A DNA stretch of 64,000 nt, taken from assembly GCA_030141605.1 (NCBI GenBank), contig JAQGDQ010000064.1, positions 238,116-302,115 of the forward strand, written 5' to 3'. Positions 783 through 60,201 of the stretch are shown here, piece after piece. Below the pieces are notes generated by a model, which saw only the letters and a list, made by a program, of their open reading frames with translations, was not told where the DNA came from and ran no database searches. The first letter of the stretch is position 1, and the number at the start of each line of letters is the position of its first letter. Source of the DNA: Tubiluchus corallicola (Eukaryota; Animalia; Priapulida). A program made the position numbers and the translations under genes.

Positions 783-958
783 ACAACAGCAGGAGTTACA
801 GCAGATCGAGAACAGGGAAGTTGGGCGTCGGTTACTCAGGGAAAAAGCCAAGAAGAGGGAGAGGCGTTCCAGCAGCAAGCGACATAAGAGCTACCGTAGC
901 AAATCCGACCAGAGCGAGGTGACGCCCCTCAACTCTCCCCATTCCCACGATGAAATAG
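783..958 (+). CDS. Kv1/Shaker long-isoform N-terminal exon (internal; upstream exon presumably outside the window)
   Basis: Acceptor tttacttttcAG (781-782). Open frame QQQELQQIENREVGRRLLREKAKKRERRSSSKRHKSYRSKSDQSEVTPLNSPHSHDEI. Donor G|GTATAT is phase 1 and matches the phase-1 acceptor at 3108. Confidence 0.65.
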
Positions 959-3107: not shown

Positions 3108-3372
3108 GTGTTGCGGAGAATGTGGCTCACACCTGGCGACGGACATCTGACCTCACGATGGGTGACCGAGTGGGTGACGTTGCAGGAGAGAGCAACAACT
3201 TGGAGTCGTATGAACGTGATGATAAGAACACTGATGCATCGTTCCTTCCGCCATGTTTGGAACGCAATCGAAGCATGCGAAGTCTTAGTGCCAAAAGTGC
3301 GGTGACGGACATGGAGAAAAGAGGAATTTCTCCAATGTCTCCTCACTCGCCTGTCTTTCTATACGAGGAGAG
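3108..3372 (+). CDS. Kv1/Shaker long-isoform N-terminal exon
   Basis: Acceptor tttctgcAG (3106-3107). Open frame GVAENVAHTWRRTSDLTMGDRV...SPMSPHSPVFLYEE. Donor AG|GTGCGT is phase 2, and AG+G gives Arg in frame with the core exon at 9918. An internal ATG at 3158 is an alternative start. Confidence 0.7.
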
Positions 3373-8200: not shown

Positions 8201-8313
8201 ATGGAAGCAGCAATGGCTGGAATTGATGGTGGTGGTCACACCGCCTACGAGCAGGCCATGAGGAAATTTCCATGGTTTATGCCTCCTCGCGTCCCCCTGT
8301 ACATGAATCCTAG
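8201..8313 (+). CDS. Sh: Kv1/Shaker alternative first coding exon with an N-type inactivation-ball-like peptide
   Basis: Encodes MEAAMAGIDGGGHTAYEQAMRKFPWFMPPRVPLYMNP, resembling the Aplysia Kv1 (MEVAMAGIEG) and Kv1.4 (MEVAM) inactivation peptides. An in-frame TAA lies just upstream of the ATG. Donor AG|GTAACG is phase 2 and joins 9918 in frame, giving a 526-aa protein. Confidence 0.88.
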
Positions 8314-9917: not shown

Positions 9918-11385
9918 GGCATACAAGTTTCCTGATGAACCAGATGTGGAGAGCAGTCGGCATGCCTGTCGCGCAACAGAATCAGACTGCTGTGAACGCG
10001 TAGTGATAAATGTGAGTGGCATGCGATTCGAAACAAAACTACGAACTCTCAATCTCTTTCCAGATACGCTACTCGGTGATCCTCAAAAACGTATTCGTTA
10101 CTTCGACCCATTGCGCAATGAATACTTTTTTGATCGAAACCGGCCGAGCTTCGATGCAATTCTGTATTATTACCAAAGTGGTGGTAGATTACGCAGACCT
10201 GTAAATGTCCCATTAGATGTGTTTACTGAAGAGATTAGGTTCTATGAACTAGGCGAAGCTGCATTGGAAAAATACCGTGAAGACGAAGGTTTTATAAAAG
10301 AGGAGGAACGACCCCTTCCGGAAGGTGAACTCCAGCGAAAGCTATGGTGCTTATTAGAGTACCCTGAAACGTCTCAATGGGCGAGAATTATAGCTATATT
10401 CTCAGTATTTATAATCTTACTCTCGATCGTGATATTTTGCCTGGAAACACTTCCAGTGTTCAGGCACTATAAAAAAGTAACAGGACCACATAATAAGACT
10501 TCTTTCAAAGATGATACAGTGCCACAAAAGACTGATCCGTTTTTCATTATTGAGACTATATGCATCATCTGGTTCACCACAGAATTAACGCTGAGGTTTG
10601 CTGCCAGTCCAAGTAAACTTCAATTTGCGCGTAGCATTATGAATATCATTGATATGGTGGCTATTATTCCTTACTTTGTCACATTAGGTACTGTATTAGC
10701 CAATGAAGAGAAGAGCAGCAGTCAGGCTATGTCACTGGCTATTCTTCGTGTGATTCGTCTAGTAAGGGTATTTAGGATATTCAAATTATCGCGACATTCA
10801 AAAGGACTGCAAATTCTAGGACAAACGTTAAAAGCAAGTATGCGGGAACTTGGCTTGCTAATATTCTTCCTGTTTATTGGGGTAATATTGTTCTCTAGTG
10901 CTGTGTATTTTGCAGAACAAGATAATAATCAGACACATTTTACCAGTATACCAGATGCCTTCTGGTGGGCTGTTGTCACTATGACAACAGTTGGTTATGG
11001 TGACATGCGACCCGTCAGTTATGGCGGCAAAATAGTTGGTTCACTGTGTGCCATAGCAGGTGTGCTAACCATTGCTTTGCCTGTTCCAGTCATTGTGTCA
11101 AATTTCAACTATTTCTACCACCGAGAAACAGACAATACTGAGCAACAGCTGTGCCTAAGTGAAACAGATGCAGATAACTCGCCTCCAAGTTCTGTGGGTG
11201 ATGACGGACAATATTTATCTGGCTCAATCAAGCGCAAGTCAACTATTAGCAACAGTAGCTCAGATATGGTAGAAATGGAAGAAGGACTCGGAACTAGGAG
11301 TCAAGAAGTGAGTAAAAATCCAGGACAGCAATGCAATACTAGTCACAATAATGTTAATTCACTCAGCATAGAGACTGATGTATGA
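9918..11385 (+). CDS. Sh: Shaker/Kv1 (KCNA) voltage-gated potassium channel alpha subunit, core exon (T1, S1-S6, C-tail)
   Basis: Acceptor ttttctcttccAG (9916-9917). T1 domain [14 protein letters not shown]...[27 protein letters not shown]4 [23 protein letters not shown], pore [10 protein letters not shown]6 PVP hinge, and C-terminal class I PDZ ligand ETDV. The ORF-track GTG start at 9946 lies inside the exon. Confidence 0.98.
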
Positions 11386-11652
11386 CTATATGGCAGGACG
11401 GATGATAAGGTCATTCCAGACCAGAAACCCGTTCCTGTTGTACTTATAGAGGCAACGTCAGAACAAGCCATTCCTGCACTTCCTGAAGAAGAAACTGTCC
11501 TTCAAACGGAAGATGACAATGGCCATGATGATGCCGATGAATGTCTTCCTGAAGACACTTGTGAAGTCTCTTCTACTGTGTCTGAACAGCCGCCAAACAA
11601 AGAAGAGGAGAAAACAGAAGAGCATGGAGAGGAAGGATGCCCTCTCCTTTGA
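11383..11652 (+). other. Putative stop-codon readthrough extension of Kv1 (UGA-CUA, 88 further sense codons, ends CPLL)
   Basis: TGA CTA at 11383-11388. Uninterrupted in-frame LYGRTDDKVIPDQKPVPVVLIEATSEQAIPALPEEETVLQTEDDNGHDDADECLPEDTCEVSSTVSEQPPNKEEEKTEEHGEEGCPLL up to TGA at 11650-11652. Confidence 0.7.
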
Positions 11653-14600
11653 CTAATCTGGGAAGCTACTTACTTGGACTTGACATAATAGCTTTTCTGT
11701 TGATAACTTGCAAGTAAAAAAGGATATTGATATCACCAAATATGTAGAAACTATTGGCGTTGCGGGCACAGTACACTCAGTTTCTAGTCATTGGTGTGTA
11801 CAGGAATCGAAACATGAATCGCTACACCCTTAACCGAGTGAATGTTCTCTCTGTATACTGTGATATGGCAATGTCAGGAAAACGTAAATATAGACTTTTG
11901 CTGGCAGGACAGGTCTGTAAATGTTACTCGATGTGCCAATTTGATAAATCCTCTAAAATTGTTGCTATGTCTCGCCCTTCCATACGGTGTGTGATAAAAA
12001 GAAGCACGCAGATTGCAGTGTGTTGGGTGCACCTTCGCTAACATCAACACTGCTTGACTGTCGCTCAAAGAACTCCGCCTCTTGTGCCCAGATGATATAA
12101 AAGTCAATGACGAAGTGAAATTGGCAACAATCTTGTTTAATCAAATTGAAAGGTTCTCATTTCTAGCTCCATGTGCTTCAGATCTTTTAGACTTTCTGCA
12201 GCAGTTGATATTTAGACTAAAAAAGATGGGTTGGTATAATCCTTAGTTGGTACAATTATTTTCTGGATGAGACTAAGGTATAGCCGAGCTCTGACGGATG
12301 ACACCCCGACATATGACCTTGAGTAATACTGTTATTCCTGTCTGTCAACAGATCTCTAATCTATACAGTTTGCTGAATAGTTCTATCCCTGGTGAAGGCT
12401 GCAAGCTGCAAGAGCCTACCCAATTGTATTAGTAATGTTGCCTGTCCTAATTGACAGTGGATTATGATTCTTTCGGGTGACTACCTTGCCATGATTAAAC
12501 TGTAGTTCTATCAGTCAGAATCCGATATACGATAATTACACACCGTTATGTGTATTCAGGGACAGTATTGCTGCTGGCGGTAATAACGCGTTCCTCCAAA
12601 TACAAACAGTTAAACACGCTTTCCCACTCACATTTTTTGAATACTGGTGATAAATTATTTTCCAAAACAGTCAAAGTTTAATGTTTGAACGCCATCTATT
12701 TAAATGATTGTCTATGAATCAAAAACTAAACGCGTTGTATATATTAGGCTCTTACTGGATAATCGTGAGACATTACGGTGTTTTTTTGGCTTTCTGCTTT
12801 AACTTTTGAAATTTACATTCAGAAAGTTACAAGTATACGTTTCTCTTTCAGTCTCAATTTGTGTTGAAAAGATGTCAGCTTCGGTTCACTCAAACGCTTG
12901 ACAAACAAATGATTGTTATGCAGTTTGTCTTATAAACATGTCAAGTCTCACTTGTTTGTCGTCTAAATCCAAAGCAGAGCACGTGACCTGCATTTGATAG
13001 GCCATATATGGGCAAACTAATTGCCAAACATAACTGCCGCCGTGACTGAATTAGCCAGTATTGTTGGCTTCCCTGCAACTAGGAATGCTCTTCACAATCA
13101 ATACTTGGGAGGCCTCACAAAATGTCGCTCAGTTCCCAGTTCCAATGTAACAAAAGAAAGAGATTTTGTGTTCAGAAATAATTTTAGAAACTACTTCAAT
13201 TAGAAAAGACTTCACGAGAACCAATTTAATTACTGTCTACACTACTTAATCTGTGACCTAGTACCGACTATCTAGTCAGAAATGTTTACCATTCATTTTT
13301 AAAAGTTTGACTGACTGCACACAGACACACGAAAGCTTTTGTATGTTCTTTAATTGCATTAGTATACGACGTGCTAGATTTTAACTGATGAATTCTCTTG
13401 ACGTAATTCTTACTGGACACTTGCAGTTACAACCGACATCCTCCATGATTAATAGGAATCTAAAGCCCCAATTTATCGCTTGTGTTCGTATCGTCTAAAC
13501 GCAGACGTGCCAAATAAACCAACTCGAACACGAAACGATACAAAACGAAGAGTTCTTGAAAGTACATTACCGTCAGTAACAGCAGCTGTAGAAGAAAACG
13601 TCGAAGTTCGGCGTGGTTTTCCTTACTCAAACTAAGCATTGCAAGTATGACTTTTTACAACGCAAACGTTAAGGTGGCGACTGGTGAGCAGAATAGGCTA
13701 TTGAAAGCGAAATAACGAGGCATCAGATCCTGTCGCATGCACCTACCGAGCCGTCTGAAAATTTATAATTGCTACATGTGTCAGAAACTTGAGTTTGGAA
13801 GTGATGGAATTTTGCTCACGTCTATTGATTTTTCGTTGATTCAGTCACGCCGTGAAGATTAATTTTGTGTTTTTTCTCATCTCAATAGCATCTACCTCAA
13901 CCTATACAGATATTAGTATTTACTATTCGAAACTGACCAGATATGAATGAAAGCAACTCCGTAAGCTCGCTAAGCCAAATTCGCCGCAAAATAGAGGGAA
14001 ATCTTCATATCGAGATAAATTCTTGTACTGTTACTCTGCCAAGTCTTCTTCTGAAAGGATACGAGAAGAATCAGGATCACGCGTTCACCACGTGCATCTG
14101 ACGAAGTGGTTTGCAAGGAAACCCTCCGCAAAATGCAGCTGCAGAACTTTCAGAAATGAGGTAAACACTATAAATTCTTTGTTATGTAGCAATATTAATG
14201 AAATTATAGGTCTGAGAAACGTCTAACTGGGATCTTTTGGATCATTTTATGCCTCAATATTTCCAGCAAATGGCATTATTTTGAAATATCGGCCATATTG
14301 TTTTTAAATCTTGCAAGAGGTCACTGCAATCATCAGCCAGCACCATACTTTGTTGTTTCGTGACTTAATTGGATACTCACATGGTACACCAGCAATTGCA
14401 TATTATACCTGCTAATGCTGTACAATGCCTTATTTATCAAGGTCGAAACTCAGTGAAGCATGGCAATTGCTAATAATTACTTGACTTTTGTGATGACATA
14501 TTTTTCAATGAAACTCAAACCACCATGCAGTGCTTAAAATAATTTTAATCCTGCTATCTGTTTGTTTTAATAACTAAAACTATAAAAGGTAGACTTGGCT

Positions 14601-17262
14601 GCAGCACTGAAATGTTATTTTCAAACTCTCTGTTACAGCTTGGACAATGTGTATGAACAATGTTGGCTACACGTCTTTGTGTACTTGCCTATTTCTACAG
14701 TTTAGTCATAATTATAATCAGTATTGTGAATACCAGACATACAGTGAACAATAAGCAAATGGCAAATAAAAATGGAATGACGTGAATAGTACAAGTAGTG
14801 AATGTACTGAGCTACACCTAGAAGACAAAACTTTATAAGATACTACTCAGTTGAATGATGTGTAACCAACTAACTAGTAACTACTAAATCTAAGTGATGA
14901 GTACATGTCGTGTATACTGTAGATAAAGTAAAAAAAACGATTCTCAATTTTTGGAGCCCTCATAGGTCAACTGGACAAGGTCGATCAAAAAAGGTCAACT
15001 GCAGAATAAAGTCTTCTGAGCAACTGTTTTGCTTACTGACGAAAATTTTTCAAATAATTTTGCTCCGTCTTGAGACTTAACTATACCCATACAATCATCC
15101 ATTTTCAATATTCAACTTTTCTATTACCGTTTGCTCTCTTTCCTTCTTTTTATTTCTCATTTTCAATAGTTTTTTATCTTAACTATACATTATGCCCATC
15201 TAAGCAGTTTTTAAACACGCTTTGTCTTCTTTCTGCTGCTCAGTGCATTCATTACTCATATTATTCATGTCATTCCGCTTTTGTTTATTATTTGCCTGTT
15301 GTTTACTGAATGTTTGGTGTTCACAATTTAAAATTGAGAGGACATTACAGGGTAATCTAAAAAGGCTATTAGGTTGCCATTTAGGTCAACCAAATAAACT
15401 GTTAACCCAGTACTTATTATAACTACTGCAACCGCAATTGACCTTCATGTTTTAAATGATTTAGGTTATCGAGGAAGGCCCTAAGATTTGTGCATTGTAC
15501 AGCTAAGTGACTTCTAACAGTTTACAGCTCGTTAATTAAACAGGAAAAGCCTAACTACTTGCTGCAATAGTGAGGTAACAATTTAGATGAAATTGAAATG
15601 AGTTTTAAACGATCGTTGATAAACTTGGTAGACCGTAAAGTAGTAAGCAGTTTAAATGGTTCAGTGTATTTTTTTAAATGCATTATGCGTTTGTTTGATA
15701 AATGCGCACTTGTATGGCAAAATACTGTTAACTTTGTGTAATTATTAATATATGCTCGATTCTTACGCAATTACCCGTTTTTGGCTGCCAGCAGCGTCAG
15801 TCATTGAACATCAGTCGCCCAGCCGACCTTCGATTCGCCGCGATATTTTACTGTTTTATCACTATAGTTTCGGACTGTTCTTATGCAAACTACTTTACAT
15901 TTTACTAACAACTTCCTCGTTTTTTTTTCGTTCACAGTTTTTTCTATGTGCGTACGCGTCAATGCGTGCACTTCTCTGCTTGCATGTTTTCTGCGAGCTT
16001 TCTTCATTTAAAAGGCGGCTTGGTTTTCTTCGATGTAAATCTAAGTTGGACACTACAAAACGCTTTCATGTATGTTATTATAATTGTTTATCAAATCATC
16101 GCAAAAAGGAATTAATAATTTCATTCAATGATATGTGCGTGATGTCAGTGTTTTACGTGAAAGATTAAAGGTTGTTACTGGGCGTCGAAAATCTAGGACT
16201 AGCGCCTACACCTCGGAAACGCGTTGCGCAAAAAAACAGGTGATGTACCTATCAGTTTAGAGGTGTTCGGTTGTGCTGTAGTGCACATGTTCGAGAGCTC
16301 ATACGTGAGTACAACGGCAAACTTGAAATTTGAATTTTAAACTTCAAATTTTCCAAGCCTTTGTATATCACACTAATTGTAGTACAGTAGCAACGTATTT
16401 CAGTTCGCTTCCGCAAACACATGCTACACGTTCATGGAATGTTTGTATTTGTTGAAAATTATGTTCACTTGTGAAACACGAGTTGTCTGTAATTAATTGA
16501 GTTTCCAACCTATTATTTAATTGCTAGACATTATTATAGGTGTTAGAATGTATACTTTTTACCGTACTTCAGAATGGCGTGTGATTTGAAAAATCATCCT
16601 GTATAACCTACATGCATGTTTAGCGTGCTGTTTGTAAGTTTTGAGGCACCGGGCAGCGGGCCTGTTAGAACACCAGCTAGTTGTTTGGTAGTCCCCGATC
16701 TCTCTATTCCAAAATCCAGAGTAAAACTTGTGAGGTTAAAATCAGAAGTCGCTGAAACAATATGACAATTAACGCATCTGAAATGGTGCTCAAGTTACAG
16801 GAATCTAGCTGAAGGTTTTCTAATTTTAAGCAAAACTACACAAAACTCGTTCAGCACGCCACGTGTTCTGAGGCTATGACCTTAACCAATAACGTTTTTG
16901 TCCTAAGATATATCGCAGTGCTAAGACATACACAAGGCAATCCATGTACTACACTTTTGTGTACCCTTCGGCACGCTGCAAGTCTGAATTCGGCACTCAA
17001 CGGAAGATCTCCTTGCGGCAAGACCGCCACCGAGCTCGTTATCAAGAGTAACCCTCCAAGATGACATACAGTTTGCAACTAGACTGCAGTCTGGCTCTTT
17101 TTCAAGGATAATTCTCTAACAATGAGTCATTGAACTGGCTGAAGTGTCTTAGCTACATTGGGATGGTGTGCGTGTATACCTCCCTGAACCAAGATCAATT
17201 TGAAGGACCTTGCCCTGAACGAGGTTAACAGCAAAATCAATGTGGCGAATAAAACTGCCTAT

Positions 17263-33789: not shown

Positions 33790-35698
33790 TTAGACCAATA
33801 AAGTGGGGGGACACTTGTCTGAGGCGCATGCACACGCGTCAGACTGTACGCCTGAGTCGTACCCTGTTTTACTTGACAAATGAATCTAAAATTTCTCGTT
33901 GCCACAACTCTTTATAGTAAGCACATTGTAGTTTTTACTGAAAATTGTTTCAAGTATCGCGTTTCGAGATTTAACAATATTCCCAGTATCTCATATTTCT
34001 TATTTATTAATTCATACGCGCGCGGGCGGAAAAATAAAACTTAAGTGAATTTATCTTTTTCACGTTCAATCTTCGTTTCTAATTAAAGTACTTTTAATAT
34101 TATTATGTCTTTAATAGTTGCTTATATGTGAACAAGAACATAGCTTACAGATCTGTAAATAATGACGCAAGGACTGAAAATGCAAACTAATGGTAGCGTT
34201 AACCTGTAACAAACAATGAACAATAACTCTAAACAAAATAATTTTAATATTCATTTATTCAACAGATTTTCACCTTGTTCCACACAATTTTATACGTTTC
34301 CAAAATACAAATCCGTAAGAAAACTAAATTAAATTCTCCTAGTAATAAAATGTAATTTTTTTCGAATAAGACTTTTCCAATTCCAAAATAAATGTTTTGA
34401 AGTCATTGAAAATAATTATTAATTCAAAAAATTTTACTTCATCCAATAAACAGAAGAAATAGAACAACCTGGGACATGTAAAGATAAGGTCACTTCAGTT
34501 CGTTAGTTCTAGCTTTTTTGCTTACTTGCCCGTTCAGAATAACCAAAAATTTCTTGAATATCTACAAGTTATTTCACCACTTAAGTTTATGTAAGCTGTG
34601 TTCGTGTTCATAATGTGGCAACAGTCCATTTACTTAAATATGCGCAATAAATTAACTATAGTCAGTAATTATGTACGTTCGTTGCCTTACTTGTATACAT
34701 CATGTTCATCCAGGTGGAAAAACTGCCTGTAGAAACTATTATTGTTAAGAAGATTCTTCTGGTAGTTTGTGCTTCGTTACATGCGTATGTTAATAATTAA
34801 TATGAATTACATTGTTTCAATAATTAAACTTGGCGTTCTTATTGTTGTTTTTAGCGAGCGTGCGTGTCTGAAAATTTACTGGGAATGAACATTAAGACAT
34901 TTGCGAAGAAACAGCCTAAGAATAAGTTAGGTGACCTTACAGAATTCATGCGGATTGTTATTTGCTGATAAAGTTAACTTTCTAAAAAGGAGGTTTAAAG
35001 CTTATTTTGAAAGAAAAAACTTGGGTTGCGTGGTGTATTCTCCTTCTCATTTCTTTTATTAAAATTAATTTACAAACAAAGTGACAGCATAAATTTCACA
35101 ATTATAACAAAAAGTTTAACCTAAACGGAAAACGCAACTTGCTTCTCGTTCTCCACGTTTTATATTAATCCGCCTAAGTAGAAAATAATCCCTACTAATC
35201 ACATTAATTAGGTTCAAAACATTTAAAATTACTAATTATTGGGAAATTGACAACTTAACATTAGCTTATTTTTGAGAAAAAACAAAAAAATAAAATTACG
35301 GTGTCTTTAAACAATAATAAGCCAATTTACCCCTTTCGTAAGAACGTTTCAAGTCGCGGGAAAATTTCTAACACTTGGTACTATTTAAAGGGGCGGGTAG
35401 CATTATTTCAGATGGGTACCACAATCAATAATTATAATCAATTTTATCAATATTTATAATCAACTGCAGAGGTCACATAACACCGTTCGCAACATAAGTA
35501 AGCGATTTTTAGAGCTTACAGTAGAGCCAACTTTGCCAAACAAAATACCTACTGAAACAATACCAAGTCCTAGAATTCAGAAATATTTGCGCGCCGAACA
35601 CTCCTGTTATACTAAGTTTTTGGTGAAATTGAAAATAAGATACTGCAATGGAACAAAGCTTATAATTAGTCATCATAAGGTCGAAGTGGTCGAGCGAT

Positions 35699-36066
35699 TG
35701 TATAAATAATTTCAACTTTTGATCATTTCTCTTTAACGCGAACACGTTTCGTTTCGTATAAGTCATTATTTAAAGAAACAGATTTTTTTGAAAAATATGG
35801 CAAATGAGTTTTTCTGACATTCACTTCAGGTTTTCATTTCCTCTTCGATGACGTCCATTTTCGTCCACCGCACACGAGGTCGAGCGAAAATGTGCGGTGA
35901 ACGAAAATGGACGTCATCGAAGAGGAAATGAAAACCTGAAGTGAATGTCAGAAAAACTCATTTGCCACATTTCTCAAAAAAATCTGTTTCTTTAAATAAT
36001 GACTTATACGAAACGAAACGTGTTCGCGTTAAAGAGAAATGATCAAAAGTTGAAATTATTTATACA
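35699..36066. repeat. Near-perfect foldback palindrome (176-bp arms, 16-nt spacer)
   Basis: Arms 35699-35874 and 35891-36066 differ at three positions by my reading. The same ORF start MTYTKRNVFALKRNDQKLKLFIQ appears on both strands. Confidence 0.95.
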
Positions 36067-36853
36067 GCGCTTCTCAGATTGGCTGCTGGTCAACGTCCTC
36101 CAGTTTTTGCAAATGCAGTTCCAACTACCAAGTTATCAAGAACATAACTTAATAAGAAACGCCTTCTTGCTAAGTAGTAAAATACTATTCCTCACGAACT
36201 GTTTTCTTTTCTTTACTTTTTTGCTCTTGGAACATATCACTGCGCTGGAATGCCTGCCAGTCTGATCCTTTAGCAGTTTGTTCTCTTCTCCATTGCTAAC
36301 AGCTACCTTTTCTTTCCAGGGAAATTAATAATTTACAATATAGAAAAAACAATATCTTAATTGCACAGGGAGGAATCGTGCGAGGAAGAAAGAATAATTT
36401 CTGAAGTGCAGGTGACTAATTGGCTTGTGAGTGTGCGGATGTGTGTGGGTGCGGCTCTAATTGTTGTGTACAGTTAGGCTGGGAGTCTCAAACCAGTTTT
36501 GCAATGTTTCTCACTTAGATTGTTCTCACTTTTTAAAAATACCTTAAAACAAACAATCACCAAAACACGAAGAACAAAACATGGGCTCTAAATAAGGGTT
36601 TTCGAAGTTCGGGACGGGATCGAAGTTGGGGTCGGGATCGGGGTTGAGAACGATAATTAAATTCGGGGTTTTTGGAGGTTCCGGATAGGGGTTCGCTACC
36701 CCGAACATTTTTGCATAATTAAAAATAAATGGAGATAAGAAAATTACAGCGAAATTAGTTCAGTTAGCCTTTAATTATAGGTGCGTAGAATCATGGATGG
36801 AAAAATATACTTTAGACCATGAGGATGTGACATACACCCACCCACCCACACAG

Positions 36854-43200: not shown

Positions 43201-46200
43201 ACCATCCACCACCCCACTTGTAATACACCACCCACACCATACCATACCTCCCATATCGTTCCGCAACACAATACCACATGTAAAATCTATAACACTGTAG
43301 AAGGGCGGGTGATAACAATGCCTGGAACAGCAGCAAAATTTCTCAAACTCATGGACAATGGATGTTTCAAATACAGTGCAGCTTAGGGGGCTTGAAAAAG
43401 AACTTTGAGTACACCCTTCCCGTTTCGTCTAGTGGACCTCTCTCCCAACAAAACCTTCAACATTTTATGGACCGTTTCGACCTCTTTCTGCTGGTGTGCT
43501 TATTTTTTCCCAACATGTCCAAACAGTTGCACAACTTGAATTTTTTTGGAGGCCATTTGAGCAGTTTTCTGCCAAATTTGTGTGGTTGGGTCTGTTAAAA
43601 TGCCTGTAGCAGGTATTAGTGGCCCTCCCGCTAAATCTAAATACGAGTATTACACCCACCATCAAATGGGTTATCTAACCATTACTGGCACCGCCTCCAG
43701 CAGGTTCCCGTTCTCTAGAAATAAGAGGCATAAGTTTTGCAAAAAACGGGTAAAAAATGGCCATTATAGAGGTTTTTTGTCTCCCATTCTTCCAATTAAA
43801 AATATGCGAACATCCTACATAGCCCTCATTCATAAAGCAAAGTCAGCAGCAGCTTTTGCTAAAGTTATAAAGGTACAATGGAATGACGTCAAAACAATGC
43901 AAAACGTCAACAGTTTTCCAAGTGAGAATTGCCGAAAATGGAATCTCCAATCAACTCGTTGCAGCTCCTTTTGGTAGAGGCATTCCAAAATGTACCCATA
44001 TCACCTTGTAGCCCAGTTCCTCCTCTTTCTAAAGAGCTAAGTATCTCTTTCTAAGACTCCCACCACGTGCCACTAGAATGATTTTTCTACAGGATGTTTG
44101 GCCAAAAAAAATTGGGAGTTGGGTCCGGGAAAATGCCCGTAGCGGGTATTAGTGGCTCTGCTGCTAAATCTAAATATGACTATTACACCCACCATCGAAT
44201 GGGCTATCTAACCATTATTGGCACAGCCCCCGACAAGTTCCCGTTCTCTAGGAATAAGAGGTATAAGTTTTGCAAAAACGGGCAAAAAACGGCAATTTTT
44301 GGAGGTCTTTTGCTCCCATTCCTCCCGGTGGGCCCGATTCGAAAAATAAAACCTCAAAGACAAATCTGTGGGTCTGGACCTTTCATTTGACATATAGAAC
44401 GTCGAGAATGGTGCCGTCATCGGAGCTGTAGCCTCGTCGGTTATATATATATCACCACATCACACTACCACCCACCACTCCACTCATAACACATTAGCCA
44501 CACCAACTCTCCACACCACTCACAACACACCACACATCCCATACCGCAACACAACACCACACCATACCACCCAAACCATACCACAATACCACACCACCCA
44601 CACCCTATCACCCCCAAACATTATCCACACCACATCATCCAGACCACACCCACCACACCACCATTCTACCAACACCACACACACCCTACCACCCCACCAC
44701 ACCATCCACAGCACAACACCCACTGCACATCATCCACAGCATGATGATGGCGATGATGATGATGATGATAACAACAACGATGACAACGACACTTACAACA
44801 CCAACACTAACAGCATCATAGTAAAACCACCCATGCAAAACAATTTTGTACAAAGTTGAAACAGTGTGCTATAACAAATGCTCTTAGACCCATCCACCAA
44901 TGATCAATACTGAATGGACATTCTACATAGTTTTGCTTACTGCTTCCCAGATGATAATAGGCTCACAGATATAAATTGCACATACAATCTATAACACAGT
45001 AGAACGGCAGGTGAAAGCCATGCCTGGAACAGTCGCGAAATTCCTCAAAGTCAAAGACAATGGATGTCTACCCCTTCCCTTTCGTCCAGTGAAACTACCT
45101 CTCCTAGTGAAACTACCATACCAACACTTCGTAAACCGTTTCCTCCTCTTTCTGTGAGTGTGTTTATTTTTTCTTAACATGCTCAAATAGCTGCATAAAT
45201 CAAGCTCTTCTGGAGGTTGTTCATGCAGTTTTTAAAAAAAATTTTGCATATGGGTCCCGGAAAATACCCATAGCGGGTATTAGTAGCCCTTCTACGAAAT
45301 CTAAATATGACTATAACACCCACCGTCGAACGGGCCATTCAACCATTACCGGCACCACCCCTGACGCGTTCCTGTTCTCTAGAAATAAGAGGTATAAGTT
45401 CTGCAATTTTTTGAGAAAAACGATATATATATATATATGTATATATATACCACCGAAATTAATATATGCGATAATTTATTTACTGTTACTGAATAAGTTA
45501 CTTAGCAACCAACCAGCAGCTCTTCTTCGTTTACGAGGCGATATATAATCAGACTCAGCATCAGTATTGTCGTTTTTAACTTTATCAATTTCTAGCACCT
45601 TGTCATAACTTTCTTCTATTGCATTCTGTTCAGATGAAACTGATTCAGCATTTGACGTATCATCTACAAAATAAAAGTTCTTCATAAACATTTTGTTATC
45701 ATTACACATTGTAATAAACTGAAATTTCGTTAATTTTTGTTAATTTTTTACCAGTGGCAGCTTCTGACGTCTGTCGACTACTTTCTTCTTGCATAGAAAG
45801 CTCTAATGCCTTTGCTAAATCTGAATCTATCTTTTCAGCAGCACCACCATGGTGACTAAAACAAGAACAGACTAAATTGAACAAACTTTTAGCAGTGCGT
45901 TCAAATTTACCATATAATATGTGTTATTGATTGGTTATTTAAATTCATCTTGAAAATCAAATTTATAAATTTCTTTGCAGTACATATTGAAATGTAAATG
46001 AAGAAAGTTATATTAAACATACAGAGGTTAACATTATTTGTTGTAACACAAATAATTACGAGGAAAGGTTACAATTACGGGCATGTGTTTGATTGAAAAG
46101 CTAAGCTGATTGGGCCTGACTAGTAAATGGATGGATGACCCACATCTATTTCTTGATAAAACTATTTTAGGTAGCTCATTTTCCATCAGCTATTTCTTTT

Positions 46201-49200
46201 GGGGAAGAAGGATTTGTAATGTGTATCCTCTGATGGTTCAATACCTAATTTCAGAAGACTGACACTTACAATTCGCATAGTTTCAATCCCAGCCATCTGC
46301 ATTAGCTAGACCATGGCTGCCATTAAATGCTGGATCCCGTTTGCAGTGAGAAAGTACATATTGCAATTTCACCCACTTTGGTAAGCAATGATGGATTTTG
46401 TATGCACACAATTAGATAGTACTGTGGTCACTATTCACTTAACTTACGATTTCTTTTTACTGCAATTATATCTGTCTTGGTTTTTTCTTTTCTGCTTTGT
46501 TTGCTTTTGTTTTACATTTGTGACTTTCCTAGTTGGTGGTGTTGAATCAGCAAAATCATCTGCATAACAAAATTATATACTTACAGTTACAAATTTTTTC
46601 CATAAAATTTTTACAAGAAACAATTTACCAGTCATCTAAATGAATATACATTTCAATTAGGGATGTCACGAATCTGAAATTACCAAATCCGAATCTACAT
46701 CGAATCTCATTTTCATAATCATTTTTGAATCCGAATCTCAGTTTAAAATAATTTTTGAATCCGGATTGAAACCGAATCTCTGACAAAATAATTTTCGAAA
46801 CCGAATCGATTTAGAGTCTCAATTTTTCATATAGTTCTTTCAACTGAATCTACACAGTTTTCAACCAAATTATGGCAGATTGTAAGAGTGCAGTGCTTTT
46901 CATGAAGATTACAGATGACCTGTGAGAGCAGCACATTTGACAGTAATTCTGCAATAATAAAGACTATAGATGATCTAATTATTTTGTAAGCAGATTTTTC
47001 CTGCCGATGACTAGGAATATAAAATGAACTGTTAGTCAAAAAATGCCTTTACCTACACTTCATGAATCTGCGTAATATGGATGACAAAAACCACGTTCAT
47101 CTAAGCCACATCATATGATGTTAGGGAAACCACGTTCTGTCAACATAATACGAGAACTCTTGGCATTTTTGATGAAACTAGCAGTTAAAATCGTAATGCG
47201 ATGAGTGCTTTAGCATAGGATTCCATGAGATGGACATATGCAGAAACTCAATTGCTAAAGTAGTCATCACATTACGATTTTAACTGCTAGTTTCAACAAA
47301 AATGCCAAGATTTCTCGTATTATTTCAAGTAGGGCAAAATTATCAAAAAAAGCAGCGATGTCAGGATTTTGCCAAAAAATTTAAAGGTAAATGAGCGTAT
47401 AATGGTTTTATGATAAAGCACTACCAAATCGCCTCTTTAACAAAACTAAACCTTTTTTCAAAAAAAGTCTCTGTCAAATCGGGTCGGATCTAAAGTAACT
47501 TAGAACTTCAGCAAATCAAATCGGATCAAAGCACCGATTATGATTCGGTTTTGAAGCTCTGGTTCGGTCTGAGCTTCGTAACATCCTTAATTTCAACGTA
47601 GGAAAAAAATATGAAATGTTATGAAGATTATAAGAAACTTTTGTGAACATTAATTATGTACAGATACTAATATCCAAAAATTTAGCAGAAACAGACAGCA
47701 AGAGGTGAAGATAATTTTGAATCTGATAAAACTAGAAATTTAGAACAAATACTTAATTAGATAACATCTTAATGTACAGTGACTTCAAGTAGAATTCAAT
47801 TAAACCAATAAAACAACAAAATAACACTTAATCAAATTAGTATTTAAATAAAAAACTTAATACATACCATCCATATCTTCATTACCAGTCGTACTGAAGG
47901 TTGCATAATTAATCAGTTTCTTACTTCTGCAACAAAAATATAATCTCTTCCAGCATCCAAAGTTGAACAACAACAATAGGCCCTTACTATTTCAATAGTA
48001 TCTTATTATATCAAGTAAACCACAAAAAAATGACACAAAACGTATTAATATAAATTTTGCTTCTTAGCTTTCTATATAAAATTACTCATTTAATTTCAAA
48101 AATTGTTATGACCTGACACAGAAAGGAGCACGTTCATCAGTAGGCCTACCCATACAACTGGAATTTCCTTTGATGCCACCAATAGTGAATAACTTTTGTA
48201 AATGTTATAAGTGCATACTCATCTGTTAAAAGAATCAGTTCAAAGTGTTTAATCATGTCTCGGTGTGCCAGGCTTATAATGGTCCACTTGTAGAAACTAA
48301 ATCTGTGTATTTGTGTACAGAGGCTTAGGAAATATTTTCCCCACAGATAGTGAACAACATTTCATACTGTTAAAAAATGTACCTTTGTATATCCATTTAA
48401 GAATAAGAGTATTAATTGGTACCATAGGCATACGGGCTCCCTGAATTTTGGCCGAATTCTTAGAATTTCACCCGATTTTTTAGGCCCCCATTTCAACAAG
48501 TACAACCTTACTAAGTTCCAGATAGCGAATACAAAAAGGCATCATTTCTGATGACATAAGACTGAACTCATGAAGCTGATCAACATTATTTATTAGCCGT
48601 ATTGAAATGTGATGCACAACACATATTATGACCAATATGGCCAGATATCTTGATAAGCTGTGTTTGTTTGATTATGCACAAGCACCTGGATCTTTAGGTT
48701 TCAAAGATTGTCATTGATTATGGTATAAATAGTATCCTAAGAACCAGAAGTGCGGCGATAACTTCCAGAACAGAACAGTTTACTTCCAGTGAACATTGAA
48801 TGACTGAGATGACAGAGCAATGAACCAGTAAAGAGGAATTATCCATATTTCATGACTGATATAACGAATCGGTTACATAATCTGTCAAATCAGCAATCAC
48901 CACGCAAGATGCAAGAATTAAGAATGCAGCTATGCACAGGCACTTGCCACTTTCTCATGTCAGTCAAATTAGCTCAGAAAAAGAATTTATCACGTTTGTT
49001 ACGGCGGCCGAATATATCAATTATTTGCTCCATCTTATTGGCCATTACGCAGTTGGTCACCTGACGCTCAATGTTCAAAACGGCTAAGTTAGAGAAACGT
49101 GCCTGCCGCATTGTATTTCTCAAGTATGTTTTCAAACGGCGAAGGGTACTGAAGGAGCGTTCGGCGGAACAAGACGTTGCCGAAATAAATGCTAAATTAT

Positions 49201-50102
49201 GATAACCTTCGAAAAAGTTGGAATTATAGACATGATGGAGTGTTCTTACATGTAATCAAATATCTCAGTTGCAGTTTTGAAATCAGTGTGTTCGTTTTTG
49301 AGATAATTAAGAAAAATTGATTTTTCCGACAATACATTACAATACAGGCACACAATACAGGCAGTGAGTCCAGATCCTACATAACTAAAGGACCAGAAAT
49401 CGGAAAGCACAAAATCGGGATTTTGTAAATAATATGAAATAATGGGGAATTTGTATTTGATAATCGCTGGCAAACAATCAATGCGTGCGCACTGAAGACA
49501 GGAAGCGATAAGAGTTTTATAAACAATCTGAGACCTGCAGAGAACCCAGCGACTAGTATATTTTCAATTTTGCGAATGCTAATTGTTTCCAGACTACTCT
49601 CACTGCCGGTCCGGGACCGGGAGTCGGTGCAGACGACTCCTCCTGCGAGATCAAGATTCGGGCATCTAGGTGCACGGCATAATTACTACTCTCTCAAGAT
49701 TCGGGCCATATTTGAATTCCAGGAAAAAATAAGACGAATAAAATCTGAAAAAAAATCAATTTCGAAGTTGAAAAAACTATTTTCTGAAAATATAAAGAGC
49801 AGTTCTGCCCGAATCTGACAGTCAATTTTTGCCTGAATTTTTTTGAAACCCGAAAATTGGGGGGGGGGGGCAGTCTGCCAATGATTGGTACTATGTGAAT
49901 TACAATGTGCATTTTTATATAATTACTGCATTTACAATTATTAGTTAGTTTATTCTCAAAAACTGCTTAAATGCATGCCACAGAGATCTATATATACGTA
50001 GTAACTAATGAACTTTGTATTGCCGATTTTGGAAATAAAATGATTGATAGATACTGAAAATTGAAAATACCTAGAAGATCGTTTCTCATCCATCTCACCC
50101 AT
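40124..50102 (-). CDS. RAD51AP1: RAD51-associated protein 1 / NUCKS1-family gene, 9 coding exons, ~342 aa
   Basis: GT-AG exons with matching phases: 50071-50102, 47868-47926, 46448-46559, 45752-45855, 45514-45663, 42724-42879, 41656-41796, 40676-40831, 40124-40242 (1029 nt). Motifs are collinear with human RAD51AP1: RSKKLINYATF...DDFADSTPPTRK, DSDLAKALELSMQE, RKRRRAAAEAVAKQR, an acidic tract, KPSW, and C-terminal LRLGLSRKANVKPLH. Confidence 0.9.
40676..40831 (-). CDS. RAD51AP1: RAD51AP1 exon 8
   Basis: ttccAG|TTATCC...TCTG|GTATGT, 156 nt, VIPPALSK...RKPSWLSS. Confidence 0.85.
41656..41796 (-). CDS. RAD51AP1: RAD51AP1 exon 7
   Basis: tttgtAG|AAGAAG...ACAG|GTACAT, 141 nt, EEDDVNLTFDEEDVDEEFSEQKERNK... 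Confidence 0.85.
42724..42879 (-). CDS. RAD51AP1: RAD51AP1 exon 6
   Basis: ttatAG|CTGAAG...TTAG|GTTAGG, 156 nt, AEAVAKQRLYAIGEDDDD... Confidence 0.85.
43286..45421 (+). mobile_element. Three diverged copies of a repeat (possibly Helitron-like) with CAC-rich spacers in RAD51AP1 intron 5
   Basis: Copies at ~43286-43800, ~44040-44441 and 44988-45421 share TAGCRGGTATTAGTRGC...AAATCTAAATAYGASTAT...TTCTCTAGRAATAAGAGG. Two begin TCTATAAC. A partial match lies near 60340. Confidence 0.7.
45514..45663 (-). CDS. RAD51AP1: RAD51AP1 exon 5
   Basis: ttgtAG|ATGATA...GCTG|GTTGGT, 150 nt, ends SPRKRRRAA. Confidence 0.85.
45752..45855 (-). CDS. RAD51AP1: RAD51AP1 exon 4 (UIM-like DLAKALELSMQE)
   Basis: ttttAG|TCACCA...ACTG|GTAAAA, 104 nt. 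Confidence 0.88.
46448..46559 (-). CDS. RAD51AP1: RAD51AP1 exon 3
   Basis: atgcAG|ATGATT...AATC|GTAAGT, 112 nt, DDFADSTPPTRK... Confidence 0.88.
46658..47589. mobile_element. Non-autonomous hAT-type DNA transposon
   Basis: TIRs TAGGGATGTCACGAA / TTCGTAACATCCTTA, subterminal CCGAATC repeats, and an 8-bp TSD ATTTCAAT (46650-46657) / ATTTCAAC (47590-47597). Confidence 0.8.
47145..47323. repeat. Hairpin (~70-bp arms) nested in the hAT element
   Basis: ataatacgagaactcttggcatttttgatgaaactagcagttaaaatcgtaatg pairs with cattacgattttaactgctagtttcaacaaaaatgccaagatttctcgtattat. Confidence 0.85.
47868..47926 (-). CDS. RAD51AP1: RAD51AP1 exon 2
   Basis: ttgcAG|AAGTAA...GATG|GTATGT, 59 nt, SKKLINYATFSTTGNEDMD (human HKKPVNYSQF). 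Confidence 0.85.
50071..50102 (-). CDS. RAD51AP1: RAD51AP1 probable first coding exon
   Basis: MGEMDEKRSS+AG|GTATTT is phase 2 and fits exon 2. An acceptor at 50131-50132 suggests upstream non-coding exons. Confidence 0.6.
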
Positions 50103-55078: not shown

Positions 55079-58000
55079 ATGGCCGCAGGTTGTGGAGCAT
55101 CGTGCGCCAAAATGCTTTTATTCATTTTCAACGCTGTCTTTTTTGTAAGTATTGTCAATGGTAGTTTTCCATTTTTAATAACTAGCAATTTTGTTAGCAT
55201 TTCAATTAGTAATCATAAAAATATTTTTCTAAGGTTTAGGTTTTGTTGTCCAGGAATTTCATAGGATAATATAGTTTGTCGTATGCCATTACGCCGATAT
55301 CACAGTGAAGTATAATTAATTTTTAGCTAACTATGATTATTATACATTAACTAACTAGACTGTACATTAACTAATGGCAGTCTTATAATACAAGCGGTTC
55401 GATGGCTTTCCTTAGATAAACTGATAATGAGCGAAAATAGGGAAGTGAGGATATCATTGATATTGAGTCAGGTTCGCGTCGCGCAAACATCGAGTCAGGT
55501 AGGTTCTGAGGATGGATTTCAGCTTGGCGGTTTTGTAGTGTGCCAACCTATATAGAAAACGACAAACAACTTTTTTATAATTTGCTATACATTAATAGTA
55601 GCTAATAACTAAAATTATTATCTCCTCGGTTCTCACTAGTGATTCTGATTTACATATTACGGACGCCATAATAAGCAAAAAGTAATAGTTGAAGAATTCT
55701 ACAAAATTATCCACGAACATGACTAGGCCTGCGCCTAGTTAGCACTCGGAATTAATACAAACATTCATATGCGAAAATATTTCATACCAACACTGTTCTT
55801 TGGCAATATAAAACGCTTAGACCCAGTATTTTTCAGTACGCGCTTCACAGGAAAATTAAATTGCCGGAAAATTAAACTGCCGAATAAGCACACATACATA
55901 GTGCATGGAAAACATAATTATCCATGCGGTAGGCCTGCGGATACCAGAAATAATTAATCCAAAATAGTCGATGTCCGGCTTTCATCACAGTTTTGCGAAT
56001 CATTTTCCATTGCTATTAACATGAAATATGTGTTGCACTTAAAGGGACAAACATGATTCGATCCAGAAACAGACATACTATACATAGGGCCACTAAATGT
56101 CAATCAAATGAGCTAAATATTGATAATTTTATTAATGTTTTTTGTTGTACACAAAGACTATAGTCATTAAAATCTACCTGAATGTTATTGCATCTAGTAC
56201 CTTCACAGTTTCTAACTGATGCTGAAAATTGTGGAATCATTTCACACACATTTTTGTGATGGTGATCTGGCAACAAATATGAAATGAACACGCATATCAC
56301 GTATATATATATATTCGTAATATACTATATACTATAGTATACTATACTGTATACTATATATACTATACCGGTATATTATACCGTTTCTGAAATATAATGC
56401 TTTGTGCACAAATTCCAATAAAAAACAAATACATAGAGTGCTGTACTTAATGTCAGCATTAGATTACTTTACTCCTTAAAATCCGTTTGATCCGTCTGTC
56501 CAGCCATTAGAATTTTGCAAAACTTTGCAGCTTTGTGGTGCAGGTATGTTGGGAATGGGAATATGGTTCATAGTTGCTGAAGAAAATTCATACTTTACCG
56601 AAATTCTAGGGGGATATGACAATTCGGACCCACTTCTCAGGTAATATTCTTTTAAATAGTTATTTTTGTTTAACGGAAATTGTTAATTCAGTGTCAATTT
56701 AAACATAAAAAGATGAAACGACTAGAAAAATGTTAAGTTTTGTTTAGTTATTTTATACATAACTTAATTGATTGCAGGTACTGCTAAACTGCATATACTT
56801 TATGCATGCTCACTAACGTATATAGCTGTACCATTTTAATTTACAGCGAAGCTACAGGCCTTAAAAGGCATGGCTTAAAACGAAAAAGAAGTGAAACTGT
56901 CGTGATGACGTGATGTGTTAGTAACGCTGCAGCCTAAGGATTAGCAAACGACGTATTGACTCTTAGCAAAGTTCAAATTAATATGAAGTCAAACTAATCA
57001 TGAAAATGTTTCAGCTAAAAACTTTTCGTACATGGAAGGTTATACAGAAACTGTATCATTTAGTAATGACTGAAAGACGAACTTCAGATTACATGTATCT
57101 GCTTTTCACGCACCTTAGTTCATTTAAAAGCCAGCCATAGTTCATTAAAAACTAGCATTTGGGTTCTTTATTTTGTCTTTTATTATAGTGTCGCAGCCTA
57201 TGTTGTTATTGGTGTTGGAGGGTTAATATTTATTGTTGGCTTTCTTGGATGCTGTGGAGCGTGTATGGAAAGTAAATGTATGCTAATAATGGTAAGATAA
57301 ATTCCTTATTTTATACTTAATACCTTTAGGTTTGTCACACATACAAGCATACATAATTGTCGCTTGTACAACGAGAGAAGATTAGCCAAATAAACTATAC
57401 CGACTAAAATACACGGAATAATAGAAATAATTAAAAATATGAGCATCACTTAATTCTGTGAATATGAAAAGATTATACGGAGATCAAATGATCAGAAACA
57501 CTAAAACTGATTCACTAAAGAAATGTAGATACAGCGTTATTAAAATAATTAACACAAATTAGCTAGCCCAAGCTGAGCATATTATGTCTCCGTCCATTTG
57601 TTAATTTGCCTCAAGAATTTACCTGACAGAAATTATGTATAAAGTATTATATATAACCAAGAAAACAAAAATTCTCATCTACAAAAGTCTAATATTACCA
57701 CATTATCTATATGGTTGCACTTTACTTCAAAACGTTAAATATGAAAACTTTAGAAAACTAAATACAATGCAAAACTACGCACTTAGATTAATTCATGGCT
57801 ACTCTAACAAAACTGCTAAACAACATGCTGCTTCTGCAACAAGCTCAAGAACGTCCACAAAAATACCAATATTAGAAGCCTATCGAGATTACAAAACACT
57901 GATATTTCTTTATAAATATATAAATAAACTGAGCATTCCATTTATAAACAATCCCTTAGCATTTATTCCTGATACCACATTGAACACTAGAACATACAAT

Positions 58001-60201
58001 TTAAAGCAAATTACAGTAAACAATAAATTTGGAAATAACTCTATATCAAAACAGGCCATACATTTATGGAACTTACTACCCAGTGAAATAAAACAAATAG
58101 AATCTCTCCACCACTTTAAAAAGAAATTAAAAGAATATCAATATAACAGGTTTCAACTTCCACATTGTGCATCTGATACTAATTACACGGACTCCACTTT
58201 CATATACCCCCGCCCCTGACTCCATATAATGATTAAAAATGAAATTTTTTTAAAAAATTATGTAATGTAATACGTGTTATGTTAGTTTCGTGTTTCGTAA
58301 TGTTAAATGTATAAATAGTGTGCACTATGTAATGTAAAACTTAATGTACTTTCCTATAATTGTTTGTAAAAATATTTTAATATGGTATTTGTAAATATGT
58401 TCATTATATTGTATATAGTTTGCACTTTAGTTTTTTTAGTATGCACTGGACGCATTTGTCTTGAACAGTGTTGTTATGTTAACATTACGCTGAGGCTAAC
58501 TCAATTTTATTATAATGAGGGAACCGTTTTTATGACAAATAAAGAATTAATATAATATAAAAAAAAGTAAGCTGATAGCAAAGCCACAATAAGTACCGTT
58601 CGCGGTCAAATTAGTACTTGTATGGAACCTGTAGTTCATGCTACCGTAGACGTATTGCTTTAATAAAACAATCTAGTTACAAGTAACCATAAATGCGACG
58701 TGCTTCAATTCGCAAACTAAACATAAAAATTTTCGAAATGGTCTTTGACCTTACAACAATAATAATAATCGTGGTGACTGTAAGAGTAAGAGGCACCGCC
58801 TATTTACACAAACTTGTGTAGTCATGTTAGTCATTAGTCTAGTTCCTGGTCATGCTTGAGTCACTTCAAGCAAAAATGCATCAAAAATGGAGCTGGTTTT
58901 TGAAGCGTTGCATACTTTCCTGACTTGTAATGTTTTATATAAAAATATTACAAAAACAAGAATACTGTATCGTTTTTGCAAACGCAATGATTTTTTATAA
59001 CCCTCTTTACCACATATAAATGCCTATTTTAATATTTTTAAATGGTAAGGCAAAGAACCGTCTGTTTCTTTTTATTGTCTGCCGCCATAACTGTCAATAC
59101 GGAACTACCACCACCACTACTAATACCAGTAGCACTAGTGCTACCATTATCACCACCACTATTATTACTACTACCACAACCACTGCCACTGCTTCTACCG
59201 ACTATCATGCATTACCCCTCCCACTCGCACTAGCATTACCACTGTTACTGCAGCTGTATTACTGGTATCGCTAACATAGTAATTATATGAATAGCATGAA
59301 TGTAGCGCCAAGCTATTTCTAACACAAGAAAAATCTTAAGAAACTGTGTTAATGGTTTAAACCTGATACGATACATTATGATTTTTTTTCAGTACACAAT
59401 CTTTCTTGTAGTCTTATTGGCAGCAGAAATAACGGCGGCTATTTTAGCGATTGTCTACCAAAGCGAAGTACGTATACATTTTAAGATTTGAAGATTGCAG
59501 TGTAATTCGTAATTTTTACGCTTTGTATTTTTGTCAATAATACAGTGTAGAATCAATAATATAGTATCGCATTCTTACTCTTTACATACAAATACATAAA
59601 TGGGGAGCTGTGTTTTTGAGAGAAATAAGCTAGCGTTTCTCATAAACATGACGGTTAACACCAGCCCCTGTAATCTGAAATAGATACATACTAATAATAA
59701 ATATGGCGACAAATCTATCAAGAATGAACACGTGGAATGACCTACACATTCGGTCAAAAAAGTGAGTAACATATCTAGTTTTAGAACTTCAAAAAGTTAC
59801 ATATAATTATAACAGACCTGTCCACAATGGAGACAAAGTAAATAGCAATGCAGACTCTTCACTATGCCATTCAGGTAAATGAGATTAATTTTTTTTAACC
59901 ACATCAAGTTTTAATTGGTTTTTAAAAGTTAAGGAAATATGTATATCATACAAATTATTATTATGATGTTTTTGTACGTCGTAGGTTTTAATTGGTTGTA
60001 GGTTGTACTGTTATTATGAGTTGAAAAGTATTTTTGATTTCTTTGTGTCATTTGAATTTGTATTATATAATTGTAAGTACTATGCTTGATATAGTTTGTA
60101 ATACGTGTATTTGTATTGTTATTTGTTTTTAACACTATCTCACACACAGAAACACAGAAATTAATTTTAAGTGGTCATCTACTCAACATTGTTTTCGGTG
60201 G

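Follow-up and report, generated by a model that had tools for sequence, protein, structure and literature searches.

The clustering of Kv1 channels through their terminal PDZ ligand sets where neurons repolarise, and such a ligand requires a free carboxyl end. In Kv1, the C-terminal S/TXV is the part that PSD-95 recognises, and variants of the tail do not cluster (PMC2222984); mixing subunits of high and low affinity tunes the density of Shaker clusters (PMC9868669). Translation past a PDZ-ligand end has been described for a mammalian channel, AQP4, whose minority readthrough subunit, AQP4ex, co-assembles with short ones and shifts the location of the channel (PMC4132726, PMC6444679). The UGA-CUA context alone gives 1.5% readthrough in human cells, and mutagenesis of OPRL1 places the G of CUAG among the critical bases (PMC4132726). 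Long tails made by readthrough in flies are disordered and of low complexity (PMC4999894). Abundant readthrough is reported, in the survey cited here, for Pancrustacea only (PMC5100048), and this lowers the prior for the gene that we describe below. In that gene, a Kv1/Shaker orthologue known to us from one genome, we suggest that the first UGA is leaky by design and that a minority of ribosomes translate an 88-residue tail, a reading to which we give a probability of roughly 65%.

The window, by which we mean the whole 64,000-nt stretch of DNA analysed, carries one Kv1/Shaker gene on its plus strand (Table 1). A T1 domain (BTB_2), a six-helix Ion_trans domain spanning S1-S6, placement among Shaker orthologues and a terminal ETDV identify it as a Shaker alpha subunit. 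The closest homologue, P0004, is 82% identical to the window's protein and is among the 107 of 120 homologues that share the ETDV end. In a 36-row tree, for which 35 of the 120 homologue matches were picked for spread, the window's protein forms one clade with P0004, P0006 and the Kv1 of Priapulus caudatus (support 100/100); Priapulus is the sole named scalidophoran in this tree, and nematodes are absent from it. By sequence, the named relative with the nearest Shaker gene is a priapulid; the window's gene lies outside the insects and crustaceans, and it probably comes from a priapulid or an allied scalidophoran. Because so many homologues end in ETDV, the first stop is ancestral, which rules out a recent nonsense mutation as its origin. 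A public contig set is identical across 11150-12096, with zero differing letters; that set possibly derives from the source sample, and the match therefore weighs only against an assembly error at this place.

Joined to the exon from 9918, the short isoform's first coding exon gives 526 codons, or 615 with readthrough, as a first sequence-only reading of this DNA had stated. That reading had overlooked the alternative upstream exons, along with the second TGA-CTA, the fourth base after the first stop and the stem-loop that follows it. Two further blocks upstream are exon-like and in phase with the main exon, and would provide an alternative, longer N-terminus. The one at 783-958 is the weakest of the three upstream exons, with a coding score near zero, and its end phase formally fits an acceptor at 11450 as well. 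Elsewhere in the window, open frames at 48974-49818 and 57605-58219 resemble transposon remnants (hAT-like and LINE-like by eye), and repeated blocks at 43561-45548 and 35401-36265 contain near-identical translated stretches, together with simple repeats.

Table 1. Features of the Kv1/Shaker locus, in positions of the 64,000-nt window
Feature	Position	Strand	Remarks
Likely upstream coding exon, alternative longer N-terminus	783..958	+	AG...GT bounded, open frame
Likely upstream coding exon, longer N-terminus	3108..3372	+	End phase agrees with the 9918 acceptor
First coding exon, short isoform	8201..8313	+	Begins MEAAMAG, like the Priapulus protein P0026
Main Kv1/Shaker coding exon	9918..11382	+	T1 (BTB_2), S1-S6 (Ion_trans), C-terminal tail ending ETDV
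Candidate in-frame 5' splice site	11305..11313	+	GT at 11308; 7/9 consensus matches
ETDV codons, class I PDZ ligand	11371..11382	+	ETDV end shared by 107/120 homologues
First stop, leaky-type context TGA-CTA, next base T	11383..11388	+	CTA at 11386-11388
In-frame extension, 88 codons	11386..11649	+	Acidic, Pro-rich, coding-like codon bias
Predicted RNA stem-loop, 13 bp, one bulge	11389..11442	+	Firm core (pairing at least 0.99) begins 7 nt past the stop
Candidate 3' splice region	11428..11451	+	14/19 pyrimidines; exon start at 11450, or at 11452 in frame; overlaps the stem's 3' arm
Terminal CPLL codons, predicted GGTase-I CaaX box	11638..11649	+	PMC10942308
Second stop, TGA-CTA repeated	11650..11655	+	Next base A
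Third open frame, 11 codons, closed by tandem TAA TAG	11653..11691	+	Not clearly coding

The extension is real as a feature of the sequence, and it is probably translated. The features read off earlier are present in the sequence at 11383-11652: TGA-CTA is followed by 88 open codons, 26 of which encode Asp or Glu, and the frame closes with GCPLL and a TGA at 11650-11652. The extension also contains 9 Pro and no Met, and downstream initiation was rejected as a source of it since there is no ATG in frame. The initial estimate that such an open frame would arise by chance about 1% of the time was a fair one. Among stop-to-stop intervals in the six frames of the window, with intervals above 400 codons excluded, 48 of 8,057 (0.6%) hold at least 88 open codons, and when the extension undergoes 5,000 dinucleotide shuffles, 25 of them leave the frame open. 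CTA follows only 35 of the window's 2,384 TGA triplets (1.5%), yet it follows both stops of this gene. The context had been called the classic leaky one, and this is borne out as far as UGA-CUA, found at both stops; it does not extend to the full CUAG motif, as the fourth base is T after the first stop and A after the second. Repetition of TGA-CTA at the second stop raises the possibility of double readthrough, which would mask the CaaX box. The 11-codon frame beyond it has an unremarkable coding score (top 21.5%).

A stable stem is predicted a few bases 3' of the first stop. In a 60-nt window picked post hoc, the stem-loop is the best among 100 sliding windows of that length between 11206 and 12200 (z about -3 to -3.6), and it is matched by 9 of 1,000 shuffles of the same 60 nt and by 0 of 200 in another test. 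It is stronger than the structure at any of 19 related stops, whose best z is -1.8. A 138-nt fold is not significant (z -1.5). Further hairpins are predicted at 11496-11555, inside the extension (z -3.5), and at 11606-11665, around the second stop (z -2.5).

An in-frame coding signature continues past the stop, as judged by a codon score from this single genome that was trained on the gene's own exon and applied per codon to the extension, the tail and the background. The extension scores 0.186 per codon, against 0.194 for the real tail, -0.10 for the 88 codons that follow and -0.128 +/- 0.071 for the background; none of 17,668 overlapping background windows reaches its score, nor does any of 144 stop-free ones (z 4.4). 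Its GC3 (0.32, against 0.36 for the gene) is gene-like in frame 0 only. The other two sense frames score negative, as do all three antisense frames, and an antisense gene under the extension was rejected on that ground. Position bias is strong, with G in 47% of first positions (p 2e-10); 27 of 2,524 background windows are equally biased. The coding bias begins at the first stop and drops after the second (11652). Synonymous usage alone is not gene-like (-0.046 for the extension, 0.104 for the tail), so the coding score rests on amino-acid composition. Ranked among stop-free windows, codons 22-68 fall in the top 0.09% and the last 20 codons in the top 0.3%. Codons 1-13 fall in the top 1.7%, but the first 21 codons, which precede the candidate acceptor, reach only the top 10.6%, and this is a point against readthrough.

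It is in this region that alternative splicing would act. Splicing within the last exon, from a donor at 11308 or 11380 (both between codons) to an in-frame acceptor at 11425, 11452 or 11590, could remove the stop, and the resulting isoform would have CPLL at its end and no ETDV, a similar protein outcome. The donor at 11308 equals the gene's likely real donors in consensus matches (7 of 9, against 6, 7 and 6), the one at 11380 being weaker, and a pyrimidine-rich acceptor region ends at 11449-11451. The C-terminal chain of fly Shaker varies by splicing (PMC9868669). Predicted database models also exit the tail early here, the Strigamia model P0094 leaving after ETD without the V, and a predicted Athalia isoform model, P0017, ends CVQI. 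Set against this, the best acceptor, at 11450, does not share the phase of either good donor and would lead into a basic +1 frame that does not score as coding. The acceptors in frame are weak, with a GAG or with 9 of 19 pyrimidines, or, in the case of 11590, would account for only a small part of the coding-like stretch. The would-be intron is itself open, with its first 13 codons coding-like, and splicing accounts neither for TGA-CTA at both stops nor for the stem. Splicing as the route to the tail is disfavoured, and we consider it unlikely. The +1 frame directly past the candidate acceptor (11450-11656) is open for 68 codons with a GC3 of 0.72, and is probably a shadow of the acidic frame.

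Next comes the possibility that the segment is untranslated 3' UTR, either a chance open frame or the decaying relic of a former isoform or of an inserted coding fragment, passed by ribosomes at a basal level and without function. Because the case was selected from a very large scan, in which events at the 0.5% level are expected, such an origin has to be kept in view, and the extension's departure from the gene's synonymous usage also favours it. So does the want of relatives in protein searches and the atlas look-up. A word-index search of the tail region returned 57 candidates, none at E <= 10, a comparison with short proteins gave no candidate, the best ESM atlas entry (0.85) corresponds to no family, and tblastn against 80 related loci found no match. 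Two hits were set aside: the sole HMMER match, P0135, is a repeat protein of 1,788 residues whose many weakly matching repeats were read as an ankyrin-like chance match, and a Pfam match to IntS9_C fell below its cut-off.

An alignment of 26 homologues was used to scan metagenomes, and the 80 related loci were kept from the 331 confirmed stretches that this gave. Both stops could be placed in 67 of them; the 13 others, which lacked the anchor motif or a stop, were dropped. None of these 67 distant loci has an acidic tail ending in CaaL, and their longest second frame is 75 codons. Best matches suggest that they are annelid, mollusc and arthropod genes, and they are too distant to refute a lineage-specific tail. 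TGA-CTA occurs in 6 of the 67, ahead of second frames that are short or frame-unstable, so the context alone proves little; among 16 distinct ETDV tails, TGA-C is present in 6 and TGA-CTA in 1.

A chance origin would need the open frame (0.4-0.6%), a score above all background windows, CTA twice, the stem-loop and the CaaL end to coincide. A relic should gather stops and indels, and none is found in frame; nor does the window hold a copy of the extension elsewhere. We rank an untranslated segment below splicing, and likewise judge it unlikely.

Several of the related loci deserve comment in their own right. An annelid-like Shaker (L005:4357) that shows no stem ends in TGA-CTA followed by 6 open codons, and a Kv paralogue group with the end ETGV (L019, L020, L021, L024 and L027) carries TGA-CTA ahead of second frames of 10 or 43 codons that are not frame-stable. 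Six arthropod-like Shaker loci (L018:1735, L039:1051, L042:1767, L044:1751, L046:1688 and L017:1620) have TGA-C and 10-11 open codons. Five of these share the motif CAAAATGG, in frame in 5/5, and L017 encodes a similar HNG; a short readthrough may account for this, or else a motif conserved in the UTR. Among the proteins, 3 of 14 members of one cluster (P0106, P0125 and P0131, with TGA read as W) show ETDV, a stop and then LYD(W/R)HEH. They cluster with P0122 of Ridgeia piscesae, and their first two residues past the stop, LY, are those of the window's extension. It is possible, to judge from these sequences, that they belong to a siboglinid Shaker with a short readthrough.

The weakest rival, A-to-I editing that makes UGA a Trp codon in some transcripts, with the hairpin as an ADAR substrate rather than a ribosome signal, draws on the standing of Kv1 transcripts as classic editing targets in flies, cephalopods and mammals and on a 500-nt fold in which the stem reaches over the stop codon (pairing 0.68-0.87 for 11383-11385), but that longer fold is less significant (z -1.9), ADARs most disfavour a 5' G neighbour, which the A of this UGA has, and editing has no need for CUA after either stop, and we regard it as very improbable. 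Reading of the UGA as selenocysteine was rejected, as no SECIS family is among the Rfam matches in 11150-16000, a search that may miss divergent elements; a loose pattern gave two unassessed matches. Readthrough, which the sequence-only reading had proposed, remains the best explanation, with the coding signature, the predicted stem-loop and the repeated TGA-CTA in its favour and the missing G of CUAG and the want of such a tail in 67 distant loci against it.

The end of the extension suggests a further property. The Cys is fourth from the end, a2 is aliphatic and X is Leu, as GGTase-I recognition calls for; a1 is Pro, which departs from the canonical CaaX box with its aliphatic a1 and cleavage after lipidation. 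In FTase-deficient yeast, a Ydj1-CPLL reporter sustained growth and function. CPLL ranks within the top 15% of the screen, and the authors read this as geranylgeranylation of a non-canonical motif; the screen enriches for shunted sequences, and CPLL is grouped there with the non-canonical ones (PMC10942308). The proposal of a C-a-a-L geranylgeranyltransferase-I motif is upheld insofar as CPLL fits and was active in this yeast reporter (PMC10942308), and is tempered by the Pro and by the acidic stretch before the Cys. Net charge over the 20 residues preceding the Cys is -6, and there is therefore no basic second signal. Given the tail's composition, a C-x-aliphatic-X end has a chance of 0.05-0.2%, reckoned post hoc; in 67 unrelated second frames, Cys stands fourth from the end in 3 and none ends in Leu. 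The Cys of CPLL is probably a geranylgeranylation site, as far as sequence can indicate. A suspected likeness of CPLL to the CaaX box of RhoC was not confirmed in the papers searched and was set aside.

We envisage the following mechanism. UGA-CUA and the stem-loop would slow termination, and a near-cognate tRNA would then read the UGA and insert one residue; near-cognate decoding of UGA inserts Trp, Cys or Arg. In the resulting long subunit ETDV would lie inside the chain, no longer available to Dlg/PSD-95 as a free PDZ ligand. GGTase-I would lipidate the Cys of CPLL, probably without later trimming, so that the end of the tail, which is expected to be disordered, would be tethered to the membrane. 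Long and short subunits would co-assemble, and readthrough would therefore lower the number of PDZ ligands per tetramer and add a lipid-tethered acidic loop, with a tuned cluster density or location as the outcome. A small fraction of ribosomes may leak past the second TGA-CTA too, masking the CaaX box.

The scale of such an effect can be computed. At 2, 5, 10 and 20% readthrough, 8, 19, 34 and 59% of tetramers would hold a long subunit. The sequence-only reading had inferred a loss of PDZ clustering, and this was overstated: at 5-10% readthrough, where 19-34% of channels would receive a long subunit, nearly all mixed channels would keep three PDZ ligands, and we therefore expect graded tuning of clustering rather than its loss. 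The idea of the lipid as an anchor and targeting switch also claimed too much, since the channel is tetrameric and sits in the membrane in any case. The effect is likely to be graded control of clustering together with an acidic loop tethered by lipid, and the lipid would not be the channel's first membrane anchor. The whole chain of readthrough, lipidation and function, amounting to a switch from PDZ ligand to lipid, is a tentative proposal drawn from sequence. We are equally cautious about the picture in which one mRNA would give a PDZ-ligand form, a readthrough form with a buried ligand and a geranylgeranylated tail, and possibly a double-readthrough form with neither signal.

If this is true, a leaky stop would control Kv1 clustering at the level of translation, without splicing. 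It would also mean that a subunit of a voltage-gated channel is prenylated, and would place a structured readthrough cassette outside the insects and crustaceans, in a scalidophoran-like animal. Our literature search found no report of Shaker readthrough or of a prenylated Kv alpha subunit. By term search with Shaker gene ids, Shaker is absent from the Jungreis 2016 candidate table (two of its three files) and from the Pancsa 2016 tables. It is also absent from the Dunn 2013 supplement text, a weak indication as that text has only 8,584 characters; the Pancsa table includes the Dunn genes.

Comparison with known systems places this gene at the meeting point of several of them. Like AQP4ex, the window's Shaker is an oligomeric membrane channel with UGA-CUA at a stop that follows a PDZ-ligand end (SSV in AQP4) (PMC4132726, PMC6444679), and for Shaker we propose a minority long subunit with a similar role in mixed channels. 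AQP4ex differs in having UGA-CUAG, an extension of 29 residues, no stem in the accounts cited, a new PDZ-type end and experimental proof (PMC4132726, PMC6444679), whereas Shaker has UGA-CUAU with a predicted stem, 88 acidic residues and a CaaX end, and its case is known from sequence alone. In structure the locus recalls alphavirus nsP3/4 and Drosophila kelch, where a short spacer separates the UGA from an 11-14 bp stem that has a single bulged base; UGA-CUA itself occurs in Sindbis virus, and the spacers of alphaviruses, furoviruses and kelch, at 7-9 nt, are close to the 7 nt that separate the stop of Shaker from the firm core of its stem (PMC3159437). The alphavirus and kelch stems are conserved, with loops of at least 100 nt, and the viral ones have been tested (PMC3159437); the Shaker stem is local (about 54 nt), has a weak base 3 nt past the stop and comes from one genome.

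The conserved readthrough genes of Drosophila and Anopheles likewise have in-frame disordered extensions of coding-like composition, and double readthrough occurs among them (PMC5100048, PMC4999894). Membership in that class is by multi-genome conservation (PMC5100048, PMC4999894), whereas the case for Shaker is made by single-genome tests and outside Pancrustacea. The A and B splice variants of Drosophila Shaker come near to the proposed case in another respect, as there too a disordered C-terminal chain varies and mixed tetramers tune PSD-95 clustering (PMC9868669). In the fly, splicing alters the length and affinity of the chain and the ligand stays terminal (PMC9868669); in the window's Shaker, the change would come from translation, with the ligand buried and a site for a lipid gained.
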